Shown piece after piece: positions 29,360 to 39,110 of a DNA stretch of 64,000 nucleotides (its first letter is position 1; the number at the start of each line of letters is the position of its first letter). Made by a program: the position numbers and the translations under genes. This stretch comes from Candidatus Poribacteria bacterium (GTDB lineage Bacteria > Poribacteria > WGA-4E > WGA-3G). Where the stretch lies: assembly GCA_965242965.1 (NCBI GenBank), contig OZ251518.1, positions 192,001-256,000 of the forward strand, given 5' to 3'. The notes below the pieces were generated by a model. The model saw nothing but the letters and a program-made list of their open reading frames with translations, ran no database searches and was not told where the DNA came from.

Positions 29360-29560
29360 CCAGGGCAGGAGCAGGTGCTCCTGCCCTACAGGCGGCGCGC
29401 ACGCTAGTCCTGTAGTTCGGGTGCGCCTGCACCCGAACGGGTCAAGATCAAGCACGCCTTACCTCATCGAGACCAGGAGGTCTCTCCTACGAGGAGGAGA
29501 AGGCATTGAGATCAGGAGGTCTCTCCTAGCGCGAAGGCATTGATATATGAAACACCCTCA
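29360..29560. repeat. REP-like block ending in TIR (29546-29560)
   Basis: GGGCAGGAGCAGGTGCTCCTGCCCTAC, GTAGTTCGGGTGCGCCTGCACCCGAAC and GAGACCAGGAGGTCTCTCCTAC modules. Confidence 0.85.
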
Positions 29561-29944
29561 TCCTAACTTATACCGATTTGTCACCGGCTGCCATTCACGG
29601 ATGAGTGCCGTTTCAAGTTCCAACGTCTCCACCGGCTCCTCGGTAAGAGCAAAAGAGAAATAGACGAATTCGCCGAACATCCGAAGTTCAGTCCGAAGTT
29701 TCGGATTCTCCTCATTAGAGAGATGTTGTAGCAAGCGGCGGCGCACACAAGTAGTAGAAACACCGGCGTAGAGACGTTCGTAAGTTGCCTCTCCCTCAAC
29801 ATCGGTGGCGAGCCAAATTGCATATAGTCCACAGCGGTTCTTTGGTAATCGCAACACTGCCTCACGAGTGAACGGTTCGCGCGTCTTTTCTAACTGATAT
29901 TTGACGTTAAAGATTCCTGTATAGGTGGCTTGTGATTCGCGCAT
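29558..29944 (-). CDS. small GIY-YIG family nuclease
   Basis: GLY-x16-YAG, RRRLLQH, ELETALI, QPVTN; CAGGAG RBS 6 nt before ATG 29944. The longer track ORF overlaps the Rpn gene and is likely over-extended. Confidence 0.75.
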   Translation of the reverse strand: MRESQATYTGIFNVKYQLEKTREPFTREAVLRLPKNRCGLYAIWLATDVEGEATYERLYAGVSTTCVRRRLLQHLSNEENPKLRTELRMFGEFVYFSFALTEEPVETLELETALIREWQPVTNRYKLG

Positions 29945-29986
29945 GCGCATCTCCTGAAATACGGTTTTCGCTTTTGCGTAAAAACG

Positions 29987-30016
29987 TTGACATTTCTGCA
30001 CAGATTGGTGTATACT
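29987..30016 (+). promoter_or_regulatory. sigma70-type promoter, probably giving a leaderless rpn mRNA
   Basis: TTGACA-18 bp-TATACT; ATG 30023 begins 7 nt after the -10; no SD. Confidence 0.6.
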
Positions 30017-30022
30017 ATTAAT

Positions 30023-31018
30023 ATGACACGACAAAACATCATTCAACCCGAAATTGATTGGGCAGCTATCCCTGGTCAGAAATATGACATTACCTCGAAA
30101 AGTGTGTTTCGCGCTTTTCCGCAAGATGTCGCGAGCTATCTTATGAACGATCCGACGCTTAAGTTTCTTGAATTCATTGATAGCGGACTTCCGCTCGTGG
30201 AAACACGCGAGATGGACATCTTGATGAAAGTTGAAATCCGCGGCAGGCTCACCCTGGTGCACTTTGAGATCCAGGCAGCCGAGAGCACGCATCAACGCAT
30301 GGTGCGCCGAACCGTCGGATACATCGGCAGAGTCTACGAAAAACACGGCCTGCCGGTCCGCTCACACGTTATTTACTTGCGGCCAGGTGCTGGGCGCAAT
30401 GACCCGGGGGTGTATACCCAATCGGATCCGGGGTATAGAATCCACATCGAGTATCAGGTAATTCGCCTGTATGAACTCGATGGGCAATCGGTATTAGATG
30501 CGGCGAACGTTGGTTTGATCCCGTTTGCGCCGCTGATGCAGCCGCCGGCGGGCTCGGAAGGCATCGCTTGGGTGCAGGAGTGCATCGAAGCCACGCGGGA
30601 ATTACAGCTTGAGCCGCTGAGTCGACCGGATTACTTGACATCGCTTGGGATTTTGAGCGGGCTCGCGCATGACCCGAACGTTGTCGCCACTCTCATTCCA
30701 GAGGAGGTTAGAATGGAATCAGGTTTTTATCGGCTGATGCAAGAAGAAGCGCGGCAATCAGTCGAGGCTGAAGTCCAAGCGAGGGTTGAGGCAGAAATCG
30801 AGGCAAAAACCCGCCAACGAGTCACACGCGAAAATGCTATTGAGAGCATCCTTGATGTGCTGGACGTGCGGTTTCAGTCAACTCTCATGCAACTCTTCAA
30901 GGCGCACCTGGAGCAGATTGACGATTTGCAGCAACTTAGGCAGCTGCACCGCGCAGCAGTAAGCGCACCAAGCCTTGAAGCCTTCACCGAAACTTTGGTG
31001 CAAAACGGCAACAACTAA
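30023..31018 (+). CDS. Rpn family (YhgA-like) PD-(D/E)xK nuclease / recombination-promoting nuclease
   Basis: KYDITSK, REMDIL...LVHFEIQ, RMVRR..Y, PVRSHVIYL, YQVIRLYE, LIPFAPLM; DUF4351-like C-terminus (LDVRF...IDDLQQLRQL). Confidence 0.85.
   Translation: MTRQNIIQPEIDWAAIPGQKYDITSKSVFRAFPQDVASYLMNDPTLKFLEFIDSGLPLVETREMDILMKVEIRGRLTLVHFEIQAAESTHQRMVRRTVGYIGRVYEKHGLPVRSHVIYLRPGAGRNDPGVYTQSDPGYRIHIEYQVIRLYELDGQSVLDAANVGLIPFAPLMQPPAGSEGIAWVQECIEATRELQLEPLSRPDYLTSLGILSGLAHDPNVVATLIPEEVRMESGFYRLMQEEARQSVEAEVQARVEAEIEAKTRQRVTRENAIESILDVLDVRFQSTLMQLFKAHLEQIDDLQQLRQLHRAAVSAPSLEAFTETLVQNGNN
30713..31018 (+). CDS. putative intragenic small protein RpnS (antitoxin), in frame with rpn
   Basis: GAGGAGG at 30701-30707 followed by in-frame ATG at 30713, the architecture described for Rpn toxin/intragenic antitoxin pairs. 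Confidence 0.6.
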   Translation: MESGFYRLMQEEARQSVEAEVQARVEAEIEAKTRQRVTRENAIESILDVLDVRFQSTLMQLFKAHLEQIDDLQQLRQLHRAAVSAPSLEAFTETLVQNGNN

Positions 31019-31089
31019 TTCCAAATGAGGTCGATTCGTCTTGCCTCAGTAGGACAAGATGAGTTCACTAGAACTTGATCTATTTGGAA
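31019..31089 (+). other. putative structured RNA/ssDNA element (3-way junction) between rpn and the RpnS copy
   Basis: Outer stem TTCCAAAT(G)AGGTCGA/TTGATCTATTTGGAA; inner hairpins CGTCTTGCCT-CAGT-AGGACAAGATG and GTTC-ACTA-GAAC. Confidence 0.4.
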
Positions 31090-31194
31090 TCTGACTCCTT
31101 TGCAGGCAACCCGAAACTACTCAGGTTAATTTCGTAAATCCTGCTCGCGCATGACCCGAACGTTGTCGCCACTCTCATTCCAGAGGAGGTTAGA

Positions 31195-31581
31195 ATGGAA
31201 TCAGGTTTTTATGAGCTGATGCAAGCAGAAGCGCGGCAATCAGTTGAGGCAGAAACCCGCGCGAAAGTTGAGGCAGAAATCCGCGCGAAGGTTGAAGCAA
31301 AAATCCGGGTCGAAGTCGAGGCTGAAACCCTGGCGAAATTCATCGCAGAAATGGATGAAACCTGGACAAAGGAGTACCAGCAAGCTACCCACAAAGTTGC
31401 TGTAAAAAGCATCCTTACCGTCCTAGACATGCGATTTCAATCCATTCTGGTGCAATGCTTAAAACCAGCGATTGAGCAGATTGACGATTTGCAACAAATT
31501 AGGCAGCTGCTCCTCCAAGCATTACAAGCACCAAGCCTTGAAGCCTTCGCCGAAACGTTGGTGCAAAACGGCAACAACTAA
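31195..31581 (+). CDS. stand-alone RpnS-like protein (duplicated rpn C-terminal module)
   Basis: 31143-31212 is identical to 30661-30730 including RBS and ATG; ends APSLEAF(A/T)ETLVQNGNN like rpn. Confidence 0.8.
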   Translation: MESGFYELMQAEARQSVEAETRAKVEAEIRAKVEAKIRVEVEAETLAKFIAEMDETWTKEYQQATHKVAVKSILTVLDMRFQSILVQCLKPAIEQIDDLQQIRQLLLQALQAPSLEAFAETLVQNGNN

Positions 31582-31590
31582 ACTTGGCAA

Positions 31591-31619
31591 GGCGCGGGCT
31601 CCTCTGTGGAGCCCGCGCC
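31591..31619. terminator. GC-rich hairpin between convergent genes
   Basis: GGCGCGGGCTCC-TCTGT-GGAGCCCGCGCC, 12-bp perfect stem; no clear U-tract. Confidence 0.55.
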
Positions 31620-31630
31620 CCCGCGCCTTC

Positions 31631-34456
31631 TCACTCCCTCAAATTCATTTCCTCCTGCACATCTTCACGCGAACGCGACGCAATGACCTCCCACGAAGTC
31701 ACAAGATTGTTGAAAAGCACCGCATTCGCCGAATCCCCGCGCCTGTCATAGTGATTATACAGAATCCGCGCCAGACGCTCAACCGACGCAACATCGCTTG
31801 ACTTAGAATCGTCCCGCATCGCACGCGCAACCCGTGCAGCACCCGACACATCATCACTCTCCTCGTTCGCAGGATTCAGTTGATATACCATCAGATAACA
31901 CGCCTCCCACGCCGTTATCTGCGACAGCGACGCATCAGCATTCCGATGCGCGGGACCATACGCCGATGGCGGCAACAACTGCACGCTTCCCTTCTCCGCC
32001 GTTAGCACGCGCCCCTGCATCGAAGGAATAGCCACAACACTTGCCTTCGCCAACGTTTCCGCTTCCCCATACGCCGCCGACGCATAGCCGTGCTGCTTAA
32101 ACCATGTCAAACAGAAACGCGTCCGCGGATCGAACTCTCCCTCCTGCTGCTCATGATAATTGTCGATCTCGCGGTTAATCGCCATCAGTGCCTCGCGCAC
32201 CGTAACCTCCACTAACTCCTCATCGCGCATCGTTTTGACGCTACTATAACGAGAGTAGACCTCCATCCCGGGCCCGATGGCGGCTTGCGCCAAATCTACA
32301 GGCGCGATATGCGCCTCGCGCGTCAGCCTATCCAATGCCGCGGGCATCTCATTCCTGAGGGCAGTGAGGAACCCGCCGTAACTGATGTTCGATGCCGATT
32401 CAGGACGCGGCCGACAAACGAGGACGATAGATGATGCGAGCACGTTCTTCCCTTTCTTAATCCCGGTAGGCAGTTCAGTCCGCATTGGCCATGTGCCAAC
32501 GATTTGGAAACCGGCGGAGATAAGCGCAGTAAGCATTGTCTCCCATCCGGTGGAAGTTCTGCCATCTCGTTCCTTTTCCTCTTGTTTATAGGCATAGAAG
32601 ATAGACGAAGGAAATTGGTTTGAACACCTTTCCCGGATCCGGCGGAGTGTTTTGTGCAACAGTTCCTCAAAGCGCCCTCGCGAGTTCGCAAACCGCTGCT
32701 GATTCGCAATCATTTCTTCCGTTTTAGGGGTTGACATACCCGCAAATAATTCCGGATAAATACCACGAAGTGGATTCCTCAACCAGACATAGAAGAAATC
32801 AGAAAAATCGGCATACCCTATATTGTCATAATAGGGCGGATCGGTGACGATGACAGGCCCGCCTGCCACGTGCGGTGTCTCGGCGGCATCCGCTTGAAAT
32901 ACTTCTCCAGCATTTGCTGAAGCAGGCAGTCGCTGCACCACATTCGCTATCGATTCCACTTGTTTTATCCAGTTTTGAGTTGAAGAAGAAAACGGATTCG
33001 TCTCGGCAAAATCCCACCTCATTCCAATTGCCTGAACTCCGAAAACCCCGGTTATCTTGTCTCCCGTATTCTGCCATCCGGTGCAACGGGAACCACCATT
33101 AGCAGATTTCCCAATAGCAAGAGTTAGATAGCTGCATACTGCATCAGCGTAATCCACTGTTGCTCCACACTGTAAGATTTGGCTTCGGACCTCGTTCTGC
33201 AAGTCACTGAAGGAAGTTAGTGCCCTCAATTGTCGACCTCTGAACAGTTGATGCCAATGCGTGACTCCGTAATTCTGCACACGTAAATTTGGGGATTCCT
33301 TTGGCAATCTTGTGCTAGGTCGCCAATTAGGTTTGGCGGCAAGAGCAACTTCAATGTGTTCCTCAGTAGGCGGCAAAAATAAACGTTGTCGATCTCCTTC
33401 AGCAACTATCGCAGTCATTGTTTCGCCCATTTTGCCAGCTCTCGCTTGTTCACGAACATAGGGCAGTTTTACCGGTGTTCTACAAGCAAGACAGATGGCA
33501 CCGTTACGGTTTACCGTCCCCTTATCAGGCACGCCAGCATCATGGTTTTGCACGACAAAGGAAACCGTATTTGACTCGCGATCCACAACGGGCCGAATCC
33601 AATGCTCATTTCCCTTTTTCTTCGACAACTGAAATGTCTTAAGCAGCGGCATCGCTATACGACATGCGGGATTAGCGCAAGGCACCGTGCGTGCCCACAG
33701 CCATGCGATGACAGTCGCCTCTGTCCCATCAGCCGTTTTCACCTTCGGATAAAATTCGCCGATGCGTTTATATGCCTCTTCGCGCATCCAATTTCCGTAG
33801 TAACGGATGTCGTTTGCTAACCCGGCGGTGCCGGTCCACGCAACCTGTTCTCGCCTTCTACCGGTGCCGACGAACATGCCCAACGGATCTGCCTCCGGAT
33901 TCACCGGCGGCTGATTACGGAACGGATGTGGCAACTCTATCATCGCTTTGTTGAGTAACACCGCGACTGGGTTAAGATCGGAGGCCACGGCACGAAGACC
34001 GAGTTGTTGTGCTGCAAGCGGAATAGAACCGCCGCCGCAAAAGGGATCGTGAATAGGAAGGGCTCTCTCACGTAAGTAAGAAAGAACTTCACCAGATTCT
34101 GTAGGGGCAGTTTCGCCGTGAGAACGCGCCACAGAACGTGCAATCTCATAGCGTGCTGCCGCCAGAAGTGACTCGTCGCTGCTATTTTCCCATATCACGA
34201 GTTGCCTGATAATCGCGTGGAGCCGCTCACGCTCCCTCTCCTGATCGGTTTCAGTAGGAAATTCCCCCAGGCATTCAGAGGGATCGTCTACCATACTTGC
34301 GAAAATAACTGCCCGACAAGCAGCAAGAGGACGACGAGCCCACCATAAGTGCAGCGTGGAGGGATGGCCATGCCGTATTGACTTCTCGCGCGCAGATTCA
34401 CGATTGATGTCGTCTAACGGCAAATCGACTTCAATCAGTTTCTTTCGGTAGTTCAT
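31631..34456 (-). CDS. DUF1156-domain adenine DNA methyltransferase
   Basis: KKLIEVDLPL, LHLWWARRP, DPFCGGGSIP (motif I), TDPPYYDN (motif IV), CxxxxC/CxxC Zn sites. Confidence 0.92.
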   Translation of the reverse strand: MNYRKKLIEVDLPLDDINRESAREKSIRHGHPSTLHLWWARRPLAACRAVIFASMVDDPSECLGEFPTETDQERERERLHAIIRQLVIWENSSDESLLAAARYEIARSVARSHGETAPTESGEVLSYLRERALPIHDPFCGGGSIPLAAQQLGLRAVASDLNPVAVLLNKAMIELPHPFRNQPPVNPEADPLGMFVGTGRRREQVAWTGTAGLANDIRYYGNWMREEAYKRIGEFYPKVKTADGTEATVIAWLWARTVPCANPACRIAMPLLKTFQLSKKKGNEHWIRPVVDRESNTVSFVVQNHDAGVPDKGTVNRNGAICLACRTPVKLPYVREQARAGKMGETMTAIVAEGDRQRLFLPPTEEHIEVALAAKPNWRPSTRLPKESPNLRVQNYGVTHWHQLFRGRQLRALTSFSDLQNEVRSQILQCGATVDYADAVCSYLTLAIGKSANGGSRCTGWQNTGDKITGVFGVQAIGMRWDFAETNPFSSSTQNWIKQVESIANVVQRLPASANAGEVFQADAAETPHVAGGPVIVTDPPYYDNIGYADFSDFFYVWLRNPLRGIYPELFAGMSTPKTEEMIANQQRFANSRGRFEELLHKTLRRIRERCSNQFPSSIFYAYKQEEKERDGRTSTGWETMLTALISAGFQIVGTWPMRTELPTGIKKGKNVLASSIVLVCRPRPESASNISYGGFLTALRNEMPAALDRLTREAHIAPVDLAQAAIGPGMEVYSRYSSVKTMRDEELVEVTVREALMAINREIDNYHEQQEGEFDPRTRFCLTWFKQHGYASAAYGEAETLAKASVVAIPSMQGRVLTAEKGSVQLLPPSAYGPAHRNADASLSQITAWEACYLMVYQLNPANEESDDVSGAARVARAMRDDSKSSDVASVERLARILYNHYDRRGDSANAVLFNNLVTSWEVIASRSREDVQEEMNLRE

Positions 34457-34473: not shown

Positions 34474-37400
34474 CTATTCATAAACGTTCACGTCAACGTC
34501 CAACTCAACGCTATTTTCCCTGACAGAACGTTCAATGTTTTGGGAGAAACCGTCTGCCTTATAGGCGGTGATGGTAATCTCCACGGTGACTTCGCCGCCA
34601 TCGGTGCCAAGGGGGCCAATGATTTCTTGGCGCAGGTCATCGATGTCGTCAAGGGAGAGTTCACCTCGGACGGTTTTTCGAGCGACGATGCGCTTGGAAC
34701 CAAGTTCTTTCTGGCTCTTCTCGACAGATGCCTTTTCGGGGGAAACCAGCACACCGTCCATTGCGACTATGCCGGATGCCAAGTTCTCGCGGAAATGCAG
34801 GTTTTCGTAAGCGAATGCGGAGGTCGCGTTGGCATAGCCGGTTGCGTATCCGAATTTTCCCTGCGGCACGCCTTGCTCGATGCACCTGATGAGGGTTTCG
34901 GTTTCCAATTGGTTTGCATCGACATGTTCTGGCAGCATGCCCCACAGCGTATCAATGCCGACGTAGTCGCGGGCATCCCAAACGTTTTCCTGCAATATCG
35001 GCGTGAGGGAGTCCAGAGAAAGGCGTGGCTTCAAACCGGCAATGTCCGGCTTGACGATTAAGCCGTTCGGATTGACGGTGGAGACCGGTTGACTAAAACA
35101 GAGTCCCTGATATGCTTCCTGTTCTGCGTCGTAATTGTCGGCATATCCGAACGTGCCGTTGAGGACACCTTCCTTGATAGCATTCGTCAGCACTTCTCGG
35201 TTTCGGAGTCTCGGCATGTAGACATGCTGCGTCATCATTTTCCACAGCGCATCAATGCCGATGCTGTCGCCGTTATCCCAGACATATTGGGTTAACAGCG
35301 CGTTCAGCGATTCGGGGGTTTCATATTCGATGAGTGCCTCTGTTGCCTTGAAGGTATCAAACGCGCTTTCAACGATGTCGCCGTTCTCCAAAATGCGGGT
35401 TTGTTCCGGAAACATCTGGAATTTGGTAACCTGCGGGTCCAACTGCGCGGGTGCGATTGCCCATCGGTATGCCTTCGGTATCGTGCTACGGATGAGTTCT
35501 TCCGCTCTTCGCAGGCTTGCTTGTGCCTGTTGAAGCCGTTCCCCCGCGAGGTTTTGGACGCGGCGTTCGCCGGCGAGGATAGATTTCCACGCCAGATATT
35601 CGCGCGCGTGGATTTTCAAGGTGCGGATGTCGTCATTCTTCGCTGTCAGAAAGAGGAGCGTGTTCCGATGCGTCCGTTCGGCGTTTGCGCACTGCCTGAG
35701 AATGTGCAGCGCGGTTGGCGTTGCATCATCACTTTCGGCGGTGCGGCTCGGTAGCAATTTATCTGGCGGCAGGATGACGAGACGGAGCTCATCTGAGTCC
35801 GGAATCGCGTCCACATTCTCTGGACAGACGATAATTCCCGTTCTTCGCCGGCCGACAGCCTCGCCGAGTTCAGTAACGATATGTTCGTTCAGTTCATCGT
35901 TATTGAGTGCCGCAGCCCGATCGATCGCCACCTTATTAAGATTTTCCTCGGCGTGGAAGAAATAGCGGTTGTCGTCAATGTAGAGATAGTAGAGACTGCC
36001 GGTCATCTCCCGGATAGCCTCGGTGTAAGTGGAGATGCGCTGGCTGGGTTGCACGACCCCGAGGTGGATGCGATTGGCATCGATCCCTTTAATAGCCCCA
36101 CTCGGACAACTGCCGAGGAAGACGGTGCGCGCAATGCGCCGGGCGGCACCACCGAGTGCTGCGAACCGCTGCGTTTCATCAATCACATCCACGCGCGAAC
36201 CGTCGCTGTCTACCTCTGCCAGCACAGCCTCCCACTGTCCCGATAGCAGCTTCTCGAATTCCGCGGCGAGATTCGGATCATTCAACGGCAGATTCCCCGG
36301 CATGATGAGCGGCGATGTGTCTGTCCGATAGAGCCGGCTGATGCAGTTCGCCAGGAGCCGAAGCACGCCGCGTGTGCGCTGAAATGCGTGAATCGATGAC
36401 CAGTCCGAATGGAGCCGGTCAAATATCTCTGGATGAATCGGGTAGCACGCCTTCATCCGCTCAAGGTAACGTTGCTCATGAACGCCGGGTGGAAACTCCT
36501 TTTTTGCTCTGTTATAGATAGCGAGAAAGGCGTTGCAAGTCCGGTCGCGTTCCGCTGTGTCAATTTCGTTGCCGAACAATCTCCGGCGCACGACTTCAAA
36601 CGCCTCGTTCGTCTCCAACGGTTTCCAGATGGATTCAACGCGTCCGATGCGGGCTTCAAGCGTGGCAAGAATCTCTGCGCCTTTCACACCGCCTGCTTCA
36701 AGTTCGCTTTGAGGAAGCGTTACCACAAGCACAACGTTGTCGCTCCGACGCACCACTTCGCTGAGGATCTGGACAAAGGTGTAGTTCACCTCTAAATTCT
36801 CACCGGTGTTGAGCATATAGGCTACCAGTTCGTCAATCAGGATGACACACGGGCCGATGTGTTGGAAGAGTTTGTCGAGCTGTTCTCCGCCGGGAGAGAC
36901 ATCTTGCCGCCTTGCCGCCTCGCGGATAGTTTTGTATGCCTGCTGTCCACCGAGTTGGTATGCCATTACCCCCCACAGCGTATTCAGCGGTTCTCCATCT
37001 TCTGTCACGTTCGTATCCGTGGGTGACAGCCAAGTGCCGGAAAGGACGGCCACCTTCGGCTGGACGCTTCCGTCCCATTCTGCTTCCTGCAAGATACTAT
37101 GAATTTCGGTGCGGGTCTGCACAGATTCGCTATCCGCTGGCATGTTGGCGAGAGCCTCAACGCTATTGACGAGGTGATAGAGCGCGATGAGACTGTGGGT
37201 TTTGCCGCCGCCAAACCCGGTTTTCATCTGGATAATCCGATGTCCGTCCTTACCGCCGAGGCGTTTCAAGGCGTTTACCAACAGCGTGCGGATGCCGCCT
37301 GTCAGGTAGGTCTGGTTGAAGAAACTGACCGGATTGCCGTAGCTAGTTGCGCTGGCTGAGCCATCGTAAACTTGCTGCAGGTCTGCCGCCAACTCCGCCT

Positions 37401-38004
37401 CCTCAAACGTGCCTTGCGTCAGCTCCAGATTCGGCGGGATGACTTCGCGCCACGGCTTAAGTCCGCTGGCATCCGGTGCTGATGTCACCTGCGGTTTCTC
37501 GCGGGTTTGCGGTGGTTCTGCTATCGGTTCAGTTGCGAAGAGCGCGTCGCGGATTTCTTCCACCGCCTGCTTCTCGTCCGGGCAACCGATTTTGCCGAGC
37601 ACCTCGGCGATATGAAACAGACTGGTTCGCGTGTATTCCGCTTCCAGGTCATCCCTGTCGGGATGCGCGGCGTGATTCCGCGCCATCCCGATGAGACGAA
37701 GCCTGTCTTGCACCGTCATATCCGAGGTAAATTGCGGCCCGAAGACCTCGCGTTTCCAATTTCTACTGACGAGATAGGGAAAGTGCCCGATGTCAATGAG
37801 TGCTTCCACGTCAGCACCGCTTGTTGCCAGCCGGTCATCAAATTCGTCTGCTTGTCTCGGCGGCAATGAGTCGTAAACGGCATCCTCAAGACGCTTTCCT
37901 TGCACCCGTTTTAGCGAACGGACGAGGAATGGGCGCATGGCATCACGATAGATGTCAAGTGCCTTGTTGAGTGCATCGCGTTTGGGACGTTCAGTGGTGT
38001 TCAT
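34474..38004 (-). CDS. Swt1-type HEPN domain fused to DUF499 AAA+ ATPase
   Basis: N-terminal RNHAAH (Rx4H); LKPWREVIPP, TGFGGGKTHSLIALYH, ILIDELV, FEVVRRRLF, YPIHPE and FQRTRGVLRL motifs. Confidence 0.92.
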   Translation of the reverse strand: MNTTERPKRDALNKALDIYRDAMRPFLVRSLKRVQGKRLEDAVYDSLPPRQADEFDDRLATSGADVEALIDIGHFPYLVSRNWKREVFGPQFTSDMTVQDRLRLIGMARNHAAHPDRDDLEAEYTRTSLFHIAEVLGKIGCPDEKQAVEEIRDALFATEPIAEPPQTREKPQVTSAPDASGLKPWREVIPPNLELTQGTFEEAELAADLQQVYDGSASATSYGNPVSFFNQTYLTGGIRTLLVNALKRLGGKDGHRIIQMKTGFGGGKTHSLIALYHLVNSVEALANMPADSESVQTRTEIHSILQEAEWDGSVQPKVAVLSGTWLSPTDTNVTEDGEPLNTLWGVMAYQLGGQQAYKTIREAARRQDVSPGGEQLDKLFQHIGPCVILIDELVAYMLNTGENLEVNYTFVQILSEVVRRSDNVVLVVTLPQSELEAGGVKGAEILATLEARIGRVESIWKPLETNEAFEVVRRRLFGNEIDTAERDRTCNAFLAIYNRAKKEFPPGVHEQRYLERMKACYPIHPEIFDRLHSDWSSIHAFQRTRGVLRLLANCISRLYRTDTSPLIMPGNLPLNDPNLAAEFEKLLSGQWEAVLAEVDSDGSRVDVIDETQRFAALGGAARRIARTVFLGSCPSGAIKGIDANRIHLGVVQPSQRISTYTEAIREMTGSLYYLYIDDNRYFFHAEENLNKVAIDRAAALNNDELNEHIVTELGEAVGRRRTGIIVCPENVDAIPDSDELRLVILPPDKLLPSRTAESDDATPTALHILRQCANAERTHRNTLLFLTAKNDDIRTLKIHAREYLAWKSILAGERRVQNLAGERLQQAQASLRRAEELIRSTIPKAYRWAIAPAQLDPQVTKFQMFPEQTRILENGDIVESAFDTFKATEALIEYETPESLNALLTQYVWDNGDSIGIDALWKMMTQHVYMPRLRNREVLTNAIKEGVLNGTFGYADNYDAEQEAYQGLCFSQPVSTVNPNGLIVKPDIAGLKPRLSLDSLTPILQENVWDARDYVGIDTLWGMLPEHVDANQLETETLIRCIEQGVPQGKFGYATGYANATSAFAYENLHFRENLASGIVAMDGVLVSPEKASVEKSQKELGSKRIVARKTVRGELSLDDIDDLRQEIIGPLGTDGGEVTVEITITAYKADGFSQNIERSVRENSVELDVDVNVYE

Positions 38005-38026
38005 GGTTTAAAAGGGGAGCGCGCCT

Positions 38027-38180
38027 CCTGTCGCGCGGGAAGAACGGTAGGAGAGACCTGGCCCGTAGCGCGGGGGCCTGTCCCCCGCGATCGCGTCGCG
38101 GGGGAAGAACAGTAGGAGAGACCTCCTGGTCTCGATGCAATACCGTATGGAGCACCTCTTGTCGCGCGGGAAGAACAGAG
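38027..38180. repeat. Three copies of GTCGCG(C/G)GGGAAGAAC interleaved with GTAG REPs upstream of the DUF499 gene
   Basis: Copies at about 38030, 38095 and 38161. Confidence 0.75.
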
Positions 38181-38570
38181 ATAGCCCCTTGGTAGGAAAT
38201 CCAAGGAGCTCCGGTAGCGTTTGCCAACTCCGCGCGGCGCGCAGGAAGGCGTTGCCGTGCGGTTTAGAATGCGAAAATGGAACTTACAATTTGTGAAGGG
38301 GGGGGGGTCTTAAGCCCTAAAAAGTAGGGCATCGAGACCGGGAGCCTACCTGAAAAGGCGAACAGAGCAGGGCGCGAGAGGACAAGCACACGGCCCAGGC
38401 AGAGAGCATTTGGGGGATGCGCGTTCGGCATTTGTGGATTTCGGCTGCAAGGCCAGCGTGCTCGGTGTGCGTCGGTTTCAGCCATAGGTTCACCGTAGGC
38501 GCGCGTCGGCACAGCCCTTATTTTTTCCTGCATCGTCTTATATCCTAATGTTTGCGTTCGTTCGCTTAAT

Positions 38571-39110
38571 TGAGGGTGTTTCATAACTCCGTTATGGATA
38601 CCTCTTTAGGTCCTTTAGCACCTACATGTCTATAGAAAAACAGACATGCCACTGTTTTCAAGGTCCTTTAGGTCCTTAATCCAGCGGCAGCGAGGTGAGC
38701 CGCGGCACATTAAGGTCCTACAGACCTTAGGATGCGCTGCGATGCAAAATGCTATAGACATTAAGGTCTTACAGACCTTAGGCATGGCGAGGGAAACCCG
38801 CTCGGATGCGCGTGTGGCATGCGAGGGCCCAAGCCCTACGGTGAAAGGCGGCGGCCTTGCATATCGTAGCGCGGGGGCCTGTCCCCCGCTTTGGCCAGCG
38901 TCACGATGTCTGTTTCCCCCACTGTAGTTTGTGATCGCCTGATCACAACGGGGTCAGGAGCAGGTGCTCCTGACCTACAAGGGTGATGCGGTTTGTCAGC
39001 CAAACGCGTGGCGAGGGACAGGCCCTCGCCCTACGGTGAGGGGAACCGTTTTTTTTCATCGTATCGCGGGGCGTGTCACCGCGATCGTTGGGCGATTTAT
39101 GAAACCCTCA
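38571..39110. mobile_element. TIR-bounded composite REP element (MITE-like) with a candidate 3-bp target duplication
   Basis: Left TGAGGGTGTTTCATA, right TATGAAACCCTCA; ATT immediately outside the GAG...CTC ends on both sides (38569-38571, 39110-39112). Confidence 0.7.

Follow-up and report, generated by a model that had tools for sequence, protein, structure and literature searches.

A 64,000-nucleotide stretch of a Candidatus Poribacteria genome (assembly GCA_965242965.1, contig OZ251518.1, positions 192,001 to 256,000 of the forward strand; hereafter the window) carries an rpn-like gene for a putative nuclease, RpnL, followed by a stand-alone copy of its 3′ end. We propose, with a probability of about 65%, that both form an Rpn-type gene-within-gene toxin-antitoxin (TA) defence module with two slots for C-terminal tails, one attached to the nuclease and one free, and that tails have been moved by recombination. 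This reading is carried by codon choice at a conserved internal translation start and by two tail classes that occur attached to near-identical nucleases. The module comprises the following features (window numbering).

29987 to 30016, plus strand: σ70-type promoter matching 11 of 12 consensus positions, with a –10 box ending 6 nt before the start codon
30023 to 31018, plus strand: rpn-like gene (RpnL, 331 amino acids) with a PD-(D/E)XK-type nuclease domain, a helical linker and tail 1, assigned by hhalign, structure model and invariant residues
30661 to 30730, plus strand: 5′ homology arm, copy 1, exact over 70 bp, holding the internal ribosome-binding site (RBS) and ATG 30713; based on sequence and a codon-choice test
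30713 to 31018, plus strand: RpnS1, predicted intragenic antitoxin of 101 amino acids, tail class A
30962 to 31018, plus strand: 3′ homology arm, copy 1, with 52 of 57 nt common to copy 2
31019 to 31142, no strand: spacer of 124 bp with a hairpin at about 31029 to 31069 that lacks a U tract
31143 to 31212, plus strand: 5′ homology arm, copy 2, with an RBS at 31183 to 31189 and ATG 31195
31195 to 31581, plus strand: stand-alone RpnSs of 128 amino acids, tail class B (tail 2)
31242 to 31360, plus strand: 24-nt (8-amino-acid) repeats extending the first tail-2 helix
31525 to 31581, plus strand: 3′ homology arm, copy 2
31591 to 31619, no strand: GC-rich hairpin behind the last tail

The exact direct repeat of 70 bp (30661–30730 and 31143–31212, offset 482) extends to 139 nt at 92% identity (blastn E of 2e-53 for the 139-nt match) and is far beyond chance. 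A GAGGAGG motif (30701–30707) precedes ATG 30713, which is in frame with ATG 30023 at a distance of 690 nt, and the second open reading frame (ORF) stands alone because of in-frame stops upstream of it. An initial annotation of the locus, made by a model from the letters alone, had described repeat, internal start and 128-amino-acid ORF, all correctly to the base. It had further matched the tails over their last ~55 bp. The 3′ arms do match closely, but the likeness is not limited to them: it covers the entire tails (205 nt at 77%), with 76 of the first 87 nt identical. The expanded 8-amino-acid repeat that it saw in tail 2 reappears as a 24-nt periodicity with a self-identity of 0.65, whereas no period in tail 1 exceeds 0.36. 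Tail 2 is modelled as a long first helix (residues 3–81) followed by three short helices. Among relatives (P0121–P0151 and P0001–P0014), tail lengths differ by steps of 4, 8 and 11 residues among others (101/105, 120/128, 131/142), which roughly preserve the helical face. No further homologue was found within the window. We rejected an assembly artefact: the two copies are unlike each other along most of their extent, and comparable small proteins are known from other data sets. By blastn, the spacer with its hairpin matched nothing in the 74 loci of relatives introduced below nor, apart from its own site, in the window, and it was rejected as a dispersed repeat; a 15-nt motif has only matches with two mismatches, in 7 of 78 loci.

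For the internal start, we analyzed 93 attached tails representing 71 distinct upstream contexts, excluding three free tails without a locatable start. The codon at the equivalent position is ATG in 45, GTG in 22 and ATC in four contexts. A GGAG or GAGG motif lies 4–17 nt upstream in 62 of the 71, compared with 25 of 696 other in-frame ATG or GTG codons of the same genes. The glutamate codon that forms this Shine-Dalgarno sequence (SD) is GAG in 60 of 60 cases, against 353 of 811 (44%) elsewhere; the codon before it has a G in third position in 48 of 48, and valine at the internal start is encoded by GTG in 22 of 22. After thinning of these related rows to 32 and 14 representatives, GAG remains the only glutamate codon used, at 26 of 26 and 10 of 10, respectively. 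Of the nine contexts without the motif, seven have an SD and an ATG a few codons upstream, and two a run of G residues. In the window, the duplex of the internal SD with the anti-SD is calculated at –12.0 kcal/mol. The initial annotation had argued for this start from the position at which the duplication begins; the conserved codon choice across 71 distinct contexts strongly supports that it is real. A consensus scan, the sole method used, detected no internal promoter for the small proteins as described in E. coli. In some genes of Latescibacterota and Gemmatimonadota (L043, L045, L050, L051, L053, L057 and related loci), the internal SD and ATG lie 3–4 codons earlier, so that the small protein is extended at its N terminus.

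The start of the full-length gene, ATG 30023, has no SD (–2.8 kcal/mol). Together with the –10 box only 6 nt upstream, this suggests a leaderless full-length mRNA. The same promoter-ATG geometry was found in 40 of 87 distinct upstream regions of relatives, with a gap of 6 nt in 34 and of 7 nt in six, while shuffled sequences gave a mean of 0.11. The full-length rpn mRNA is therefore probably leaderless here and in many Poribacteria loci, and the module would combine a leaderless mRNA for the toxin with strong initiation of the antitoxin. A longer frame from a TTG at 29987 (343 amino acids) was rejected: it overlaps the –35 box, and L001 and L002, two relatives of the window locus, share the promoter-ATG geometry.

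Remote homology places the gene among Rpn-like PD-(D/E)XK nucleases, as a divergent form, and in the RpnLS family as a distant member. The family profile aligned with two E. coli and three cyanobacterial Rpn proteins over 272 columns with a probability of 99.6% (hhalign, E of 1.6e-24), a value that is carried by the cyanobacterial rows and falls to 0.15% for E. coli RpnA alone, which counts against the assignment. Another point against it is that the 331-amino-acid protein matched no Rpn model in Pfam, NCBIfam or PADLOC. The label "rpn" given by the initial annotation consequently stands as a remote family relationship, not as a direct match to a family model. Among 78 aligned relatives, 28 matched TIGR01784 at E ≤0.01 and none matched the Rpn models of Pfam. 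The nearest annotated relatives are Rpn/DUF4351 proteins of cyanobacteria and Chloroflexota (profile E from 4e-20 to 7e-13), which, unlike the window protein, match the models TIGR01784, PF14261 and PF11103. A tblastn search matched 21 plasmid records at 22–28% identity, with an Rpn or DUF4351 annotation in 18 of the 20 listed, and Atlas neighbors at a score of 0.96 are Rpn/DUF4351 clusters. Residues D65, E82, Q84 and R96 do not vary among the 78 relatives and align with D63, E82, Q84 and R94 of RpnA, which, with D11, are named as active-site residues in PMC5350276. The nearly invariant D22 is probably the counterpart of D11, although the alignment did not place it there.

Structural comparisons gave distant matches. 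The RpnL model has a predicted local distance difference test score (pLDDT) of 86; its residues 21–152 matched NucS with a Z of 7.0 (root-mean-square deviation of 3.0, 103 aligned residues) and VC1899, Can2, SdaI and Card1 with Z of 5.7–6.1, all below Z 8. Foldseek returned no match for the model at E <0.001, sequence searches of the Protein Data Bank with the window proteins returned none, RpnAS (7TH0) included, and the fold search with tail 2 found generic helices only (Z <8) and no likeness to RpnAS. RpnL might instead be a distant PD-(D/E)XK protein with another role, such as mobility, and the small protein a structural partner. The lack of a direct family match would agree with this, as would tandem full-length copies in several loci and the early link of Rpn proteins to recombination (PMC5350276). 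We consider it very unlikely in view of the catalytic motif, the internal start, the variable repeat helix and the downstream copy, all as in the tested E. coli system, and of the defence neighbors described below.

Relatives were collected from the best 80 of 544 genome matches, which gave 74 loci (L numbers), by title 53 from Ca. Poribacteria, 19 from Latescibacterota and one from Gemmatimonadota. The closest among them, L001, is syntenic with the window over ~17 kb at 80–90% identity. Orphan tails behind rpn, for which the initial annotation had suggested a survey, are present in 11 loci but absent from 63. These 11 hold 17 free tails, 14 of them intact, two broken and one cut by the edge of the locus; none was found in the 20 loci of Latescibacterota and Gemmatimonadota. 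The 5′ arms of relatives extend 5, 9, 12, 12, 14, 20, 40, 51, 78, 78, 82, 82 and 90 nt upstream of the start (52 in the window) and mostly retain the SD. With arms ranging from 5 to 90 nt, we rejected a fixed recombination site of 70 bp, as implied by the initial annotation. In P0129 and P0149, five new residues are followed by ~29 residues of the nuclease end and then the tail, a layout that corresponds to a longer 5′ arm with its own start. The free tail of L015 (8981–8987) has no SD and starts 4 nt past the upstream stop, suggesting translational coupling. Over ~30 kb, a large rpn array (L026 8001–13165 and L030 1–9350, on one chromosome) combines six full-length genes with six free tails; full-length copies in tandem were also seen in L029, L046, L066, L068, L070 and L074.

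To define tail classes, we used a close family of 14 full-length clusters at ≥64% identity. Their tails fall into class A, like tail 1, and class B, like tail 2 (100/99 support), in trees of 48 columns under a simple model. The nucleases (without the truncated P0014) form two tight lineages, the window type and the L001 type (99/99 and 99/98), and both classes are attached in each: the P0006 nuclease is 97% like that of the window, yet B-tailed, and the P0004 and P0005 nucleases are 99% like that of L001, yet A-tailed. One-clade tests rejected tails that track the nuclease (approximately unbiased p of 9e-5 and 1e-4) as well as tails 1 and 2 as sisters (0.004). Tail 2 is 27 amino acids longer than tail 1 and 56% identical to it in the 48-amino-acid domain. 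These results suggest that tail 2, instead of being a recent duplicate of tail 1, belongs to an older allele class predating the split from the sister species. The claim of the initial annotation that tails are grafted onto the nuclease is borne out in that near-identical nucleases carry either class and L001 carries only B.

Mosaic DNA points in the same direction. In the 52 nt upstream of the ATG, the window copies are identical at all 52 positions and match L001 at 40; in the middle, tail 2 is closer to L001 (83 of 102 positions) than to tail 1 (67); over the final 99 nt, the window copies group again with 87 matches, against 71 and 76 (runs test, p of 3e-5). A second case is L019, which belongs to a syntenic series. 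Its free tail is 90% like the attached tails of L007 and L040 and 65% like its own, and the comparison with L007 gave 17 own-genome sites to one in the arm and four to 41 in the domain. The mosaic of L024 relative to L009 is weaker (p of 0.015). Within the L001 lineage, identical 48-amino-acid domains are common to attached and free tails. Of 31 small proteins, 14 lie on contigs of at least 30 kb (eight A, five B, one mixed), while those on short contigs may be internal-start calls. Three small proteins were paired with a full-length relative on equal-sized contigs, and two of these pairs (P0006/P0151 and P0009/P0137) are B-attached and A-free, the reverse of the A-attached, B-free order of the window.

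As a pattern across genomes, tails thus exchange between attached and free slots; deletion, insertion of an incoming tail and gene conversion would all fit as routes. The initial annotation had considered a simple deletion. Removal of 482 nt between the repeats would, by arithmetic, keep the frame, as it had said, and yield a predicted protein of 358 amino acids, but none of the 14 close full-length clusters carries the signature of tail 2, and the two-tail order is reversed in the two pairs above. L001 itself, with a nuclease and a single B tail that continues into the DNA following copy 2 of the window, could be either the expected deletion product or the state before insertion. A sequence like the hairpin at 31591–31619 follows this single tail, so that the hairpin marks the old end of the unit.

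The direction of movement could also be one-way. Tail 2 would then be the old attached tail, pushed downstream by a tail plus spacer that came in through recombination at the arm, kept for a while as legacy immunity, then lost or decayed and rarely grafted back. In favor of this displacement, free tails run into the same downstream DNA as the attached tails of relatives; attached tails are of class B in L001, P0007, P0008, P0009 and the outgroup (L002, P0012, P0013); no back-graft of window tail 2 was found; broken free tails exist; and the model is known from orphan type VI secretion system (T6SS) immunity genes of V. cholerae (PMC5361080). The occurrence of both orders, with both classes free and attached in both lineages, argues against it, as do the identical domains in the L001 lineage. 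We regard displacement as a serious though clearly less probable explanation, in part a special case of the tail exchange proposed here that differs in direction.

A number of observations weigh against tail exchange between two slots as the general explanation. The tail trees were built from 48 columns, with group names assigned once the A/B pattern was already apparent. The pairs with reversed order rest on equal contig size, not on DNA. With the tail-2 signature absent from the 14 clusters, the exact graft predicted for the window was not found; the signature occurs only in two small proteins, on contigs of 853 and 880 bp. C-terminal marks that many free tails of the window lineage carry are absent from all 17 attached tails, which argues against frequent exchange of whole tails. 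A free tail is present in just 11 of the 74 loci, and two of the 17 free tails are broken. The closest match of the 14 intact free tails is the tail of their own locus in six cases, with a tie in two, so ordinary duplication also occurs; clear cross-genome tails are those of L019 and L024 only. In addition, the free tails of L031 and L036, an orthologous pair, show a ratio of nonsynonymous to synonymous substitutions (dN/dS) of ~0.58, with no amino-acid change in the corresponding attached tails.

Constraint on the free copies bears on whether they have a function. Tail 2 is intact, with a dN/dS of ~0.27 relative to the L001 tail, a value that mixes attached and free history, and its frame has been kept over a dS of ~0.5–0.7. 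Decay of the second ORF in relatives, considered by the initial annotation, is largely not seen, with 14 of the 16 free tails that are visible in full remaining intact from start codon to stop codon, but it does occur in the two broken tails. A silent cassette, its alternative to an extra antitoxin, is not supported, as the copy keeps a perfect RBS and RpnESs of E. coli is made. Free tails might be neutral debris of recombination at a repeat-prone gene, without a selected role; 63 loci do without one, two of 17 are broken and arm lengths vary. This appears improbable to us considering the intact free tails, the frame preserved in tail 2 and the fact that the four shortest SD-bearing arms (12, 12, 14 and 20 nt) end just upstream of the RBS.

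Structure prediction weakly suggests that tail 2 may bind RpnL: the predicted complex scored 0.50, against 0.00 for the best control, with contacts agreeing by at least 73% between runs and a partner pLDDT of at least 74. The mark applied is reached by 116 of 157 solved complexes and two of 215 mismatches; at scores ≤0.60, it holds only 18 of the 157 but both mismatches. The score cannot show specificity, as 10 of 12 colicin pairs made up of close cousins also passed, and this too limits its weight for the proposed exchange. If tail 2 were cross-reactive, it could serve as an extra dose that blocks resident RpnL and raises the activation threshold, with swaps being incidental. Such a role would be in line with the predicted binding, with the close match of the first 87 nt and with the free tails of L031 and L042, which are 97–98% like their own upstream tails. 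It is less easily reconciled with the additional 27 amino acids and the diverged domain of tail 2, and in E. coli a single added 4-amino-acid repeat abolishes blocking (PMC10400941). We therefore consider an extra dose rather unlikely.

The architecture itself is not new. Rpn antitoxins from internal starts, with a specificity set by repeat number, were described by Zhong et al. 2023 (PMC10400941). That paper also lists separate downstream antitoxin genes (RpnCSs, RpnESs, RpnFSs, RpnP1Ss), reports that RpnESs is synthesized, and states that rpnSs copies can disappear, either through deletion or when the N-terminal domain becomes fused to the rpnSs region. The commentary by Koonin repeats this account of downstream copies and their loss by fusion (PMC10400984). 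With downstream copy and fusion published, both options of the initial annotation, an extra antitoxin and a tail fused to the nuclease, were foreshadowed there, and the second tail is no novel architecture.

Compared with RpnLS of E. coli (rpnE-ypaA), the window locus shares the E-x-Q PD-(D/E)XK nuclease, the internal SD and start, and a first tail helix with variable repeats. The ypaA copy of E. coli K-12 begins just before the SD, like the second tail gene here, and has one extra 4-amino-acid repeat, the same anatomy as in the window. Unlike in E. coli, the sequence is very distant and the tails measure 101–128 instead of 47–61 amino acids. The repeat unit of RpnS has four residues and starts 8–20 residues after the methionine, compared with eight from about residue 16 here; repeat number varies in both systems, with close relatives here stepping by 4, 8 or 11, and classic four-residue repeats occur in relatives of 40–45% identity. 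The window family is set apart by two allele classes in both slots: its free tail groups with attached tails of other species and not with its own, unlike the pattern reported for RpnLS, which is no strict definition, although tail 2 still belongs to the same Rpn subfamily as tail 1, the level of the published rpnSs comparison. A further difference is the apparently leaderless full-length start, since rpnA has an SD for both products (PMC10400941). Neither tail-slot trading nor a leaderless toxin in Rpn was found in searches of an open-access library, though Dataset S1 of PMC10400941 may list such loci. Old tail alleles trading slots and a leaderless toxin are thus refinements of a known system.

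Orphan tips of Rhs and CdiA proteins are further orphan-module arrays of polymorphic toxins. As a working analogy, not as membership, the locus resembles the T6SS immunity arrays of V. cholerae, for which PMC5361080 describes a displacement model of orphan immunity genes. Both show variable C-terminal modules following a conserved N-terminal part, recombination at conserved arms and old modules kept downstream, but the window protein is not secreted, and the exchanged tail would be the antitoxin and dimerization part of the toxin itself instead of the toxic domain.

Under the proposed exchange between two slots, a weakly translated, probably leaderless mRNA would give rise to RpnL, and the strong internal RBS would provide an excess of RpnS1 that binds and blocks it, as known from E. 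coli Rpn. Toxicity of the nuclease and its role against phages are likewise assumed from the E. coli system. The downstream ORF would be an rpnSs gene like ypaA, with its own RBS, probably co-transcribed and translated. Homologous recombination via the start-codon arm and the 3′ arm may then move tails between slots. By analogy to the E. coli repeats, where one extra unit breaks blocking, tail 2 more likely guards against B-tailed nucleases, swapped or incoming, than against the resident A-tailed one.

The neighborhood, as context outside the module, contains two genes that run towards rpn.

31631 to 34456, minus strand: HmaB-like DUF1156 methylase (PADLOC E of 2.6e-284)
34474 to 38004, minus strand: HmaC-like DUF499 ATPase with an N-terminal Swt1-like HEPN domain (PADLOC E of 1.3e-221)

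Both are syntenic in L001. No HmaA-sized ORF adjoins them in the ORF lists, and the locus may represent a partial Hma system with a convergent rpn beside it. Divergent from rpn, a small GIY-YIG-like ORF (~29558–29951, minus strand) is conserved in L001 at 89%; its GIY-YIG Pfam match at 29570–29785 (E of 1.7e-4) is just under the cut-off. Palindromes resembling repetitive extragenic palindromic elements and short direct repeats occupy the intergenic DNA flanking the defence block (29362–29387, 29465–29546 and 38020–39040).

A further-reaching view, which we put forward tentatively and hold to be doubtful at present, is that Poribacteria rpn loci are two-way exchange systems in which a few ancient tail alleles, maintained by balancing selection across species, rotate between slots via both arms. 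Tails would change what activates or blocks the nuclease, a free copy would protect the cell in advance of the next state, and the difference between leaderless and SD-dependent translation may be a switch that phage infection flips. The locus provides a test case for two questions left by PMC10400941 and PMC10400984, the role of downstream copies and the driver of tail variation. Nucleases that are almost identical, combined with two natural classes of tail that occur both attached and free, constitute a ready cross-neutralization matrix, and the contrast between a leaderless toxin and an antitoxin with a strong SD suggests a testable way in which an excess of antitoxin may be kept and lost.

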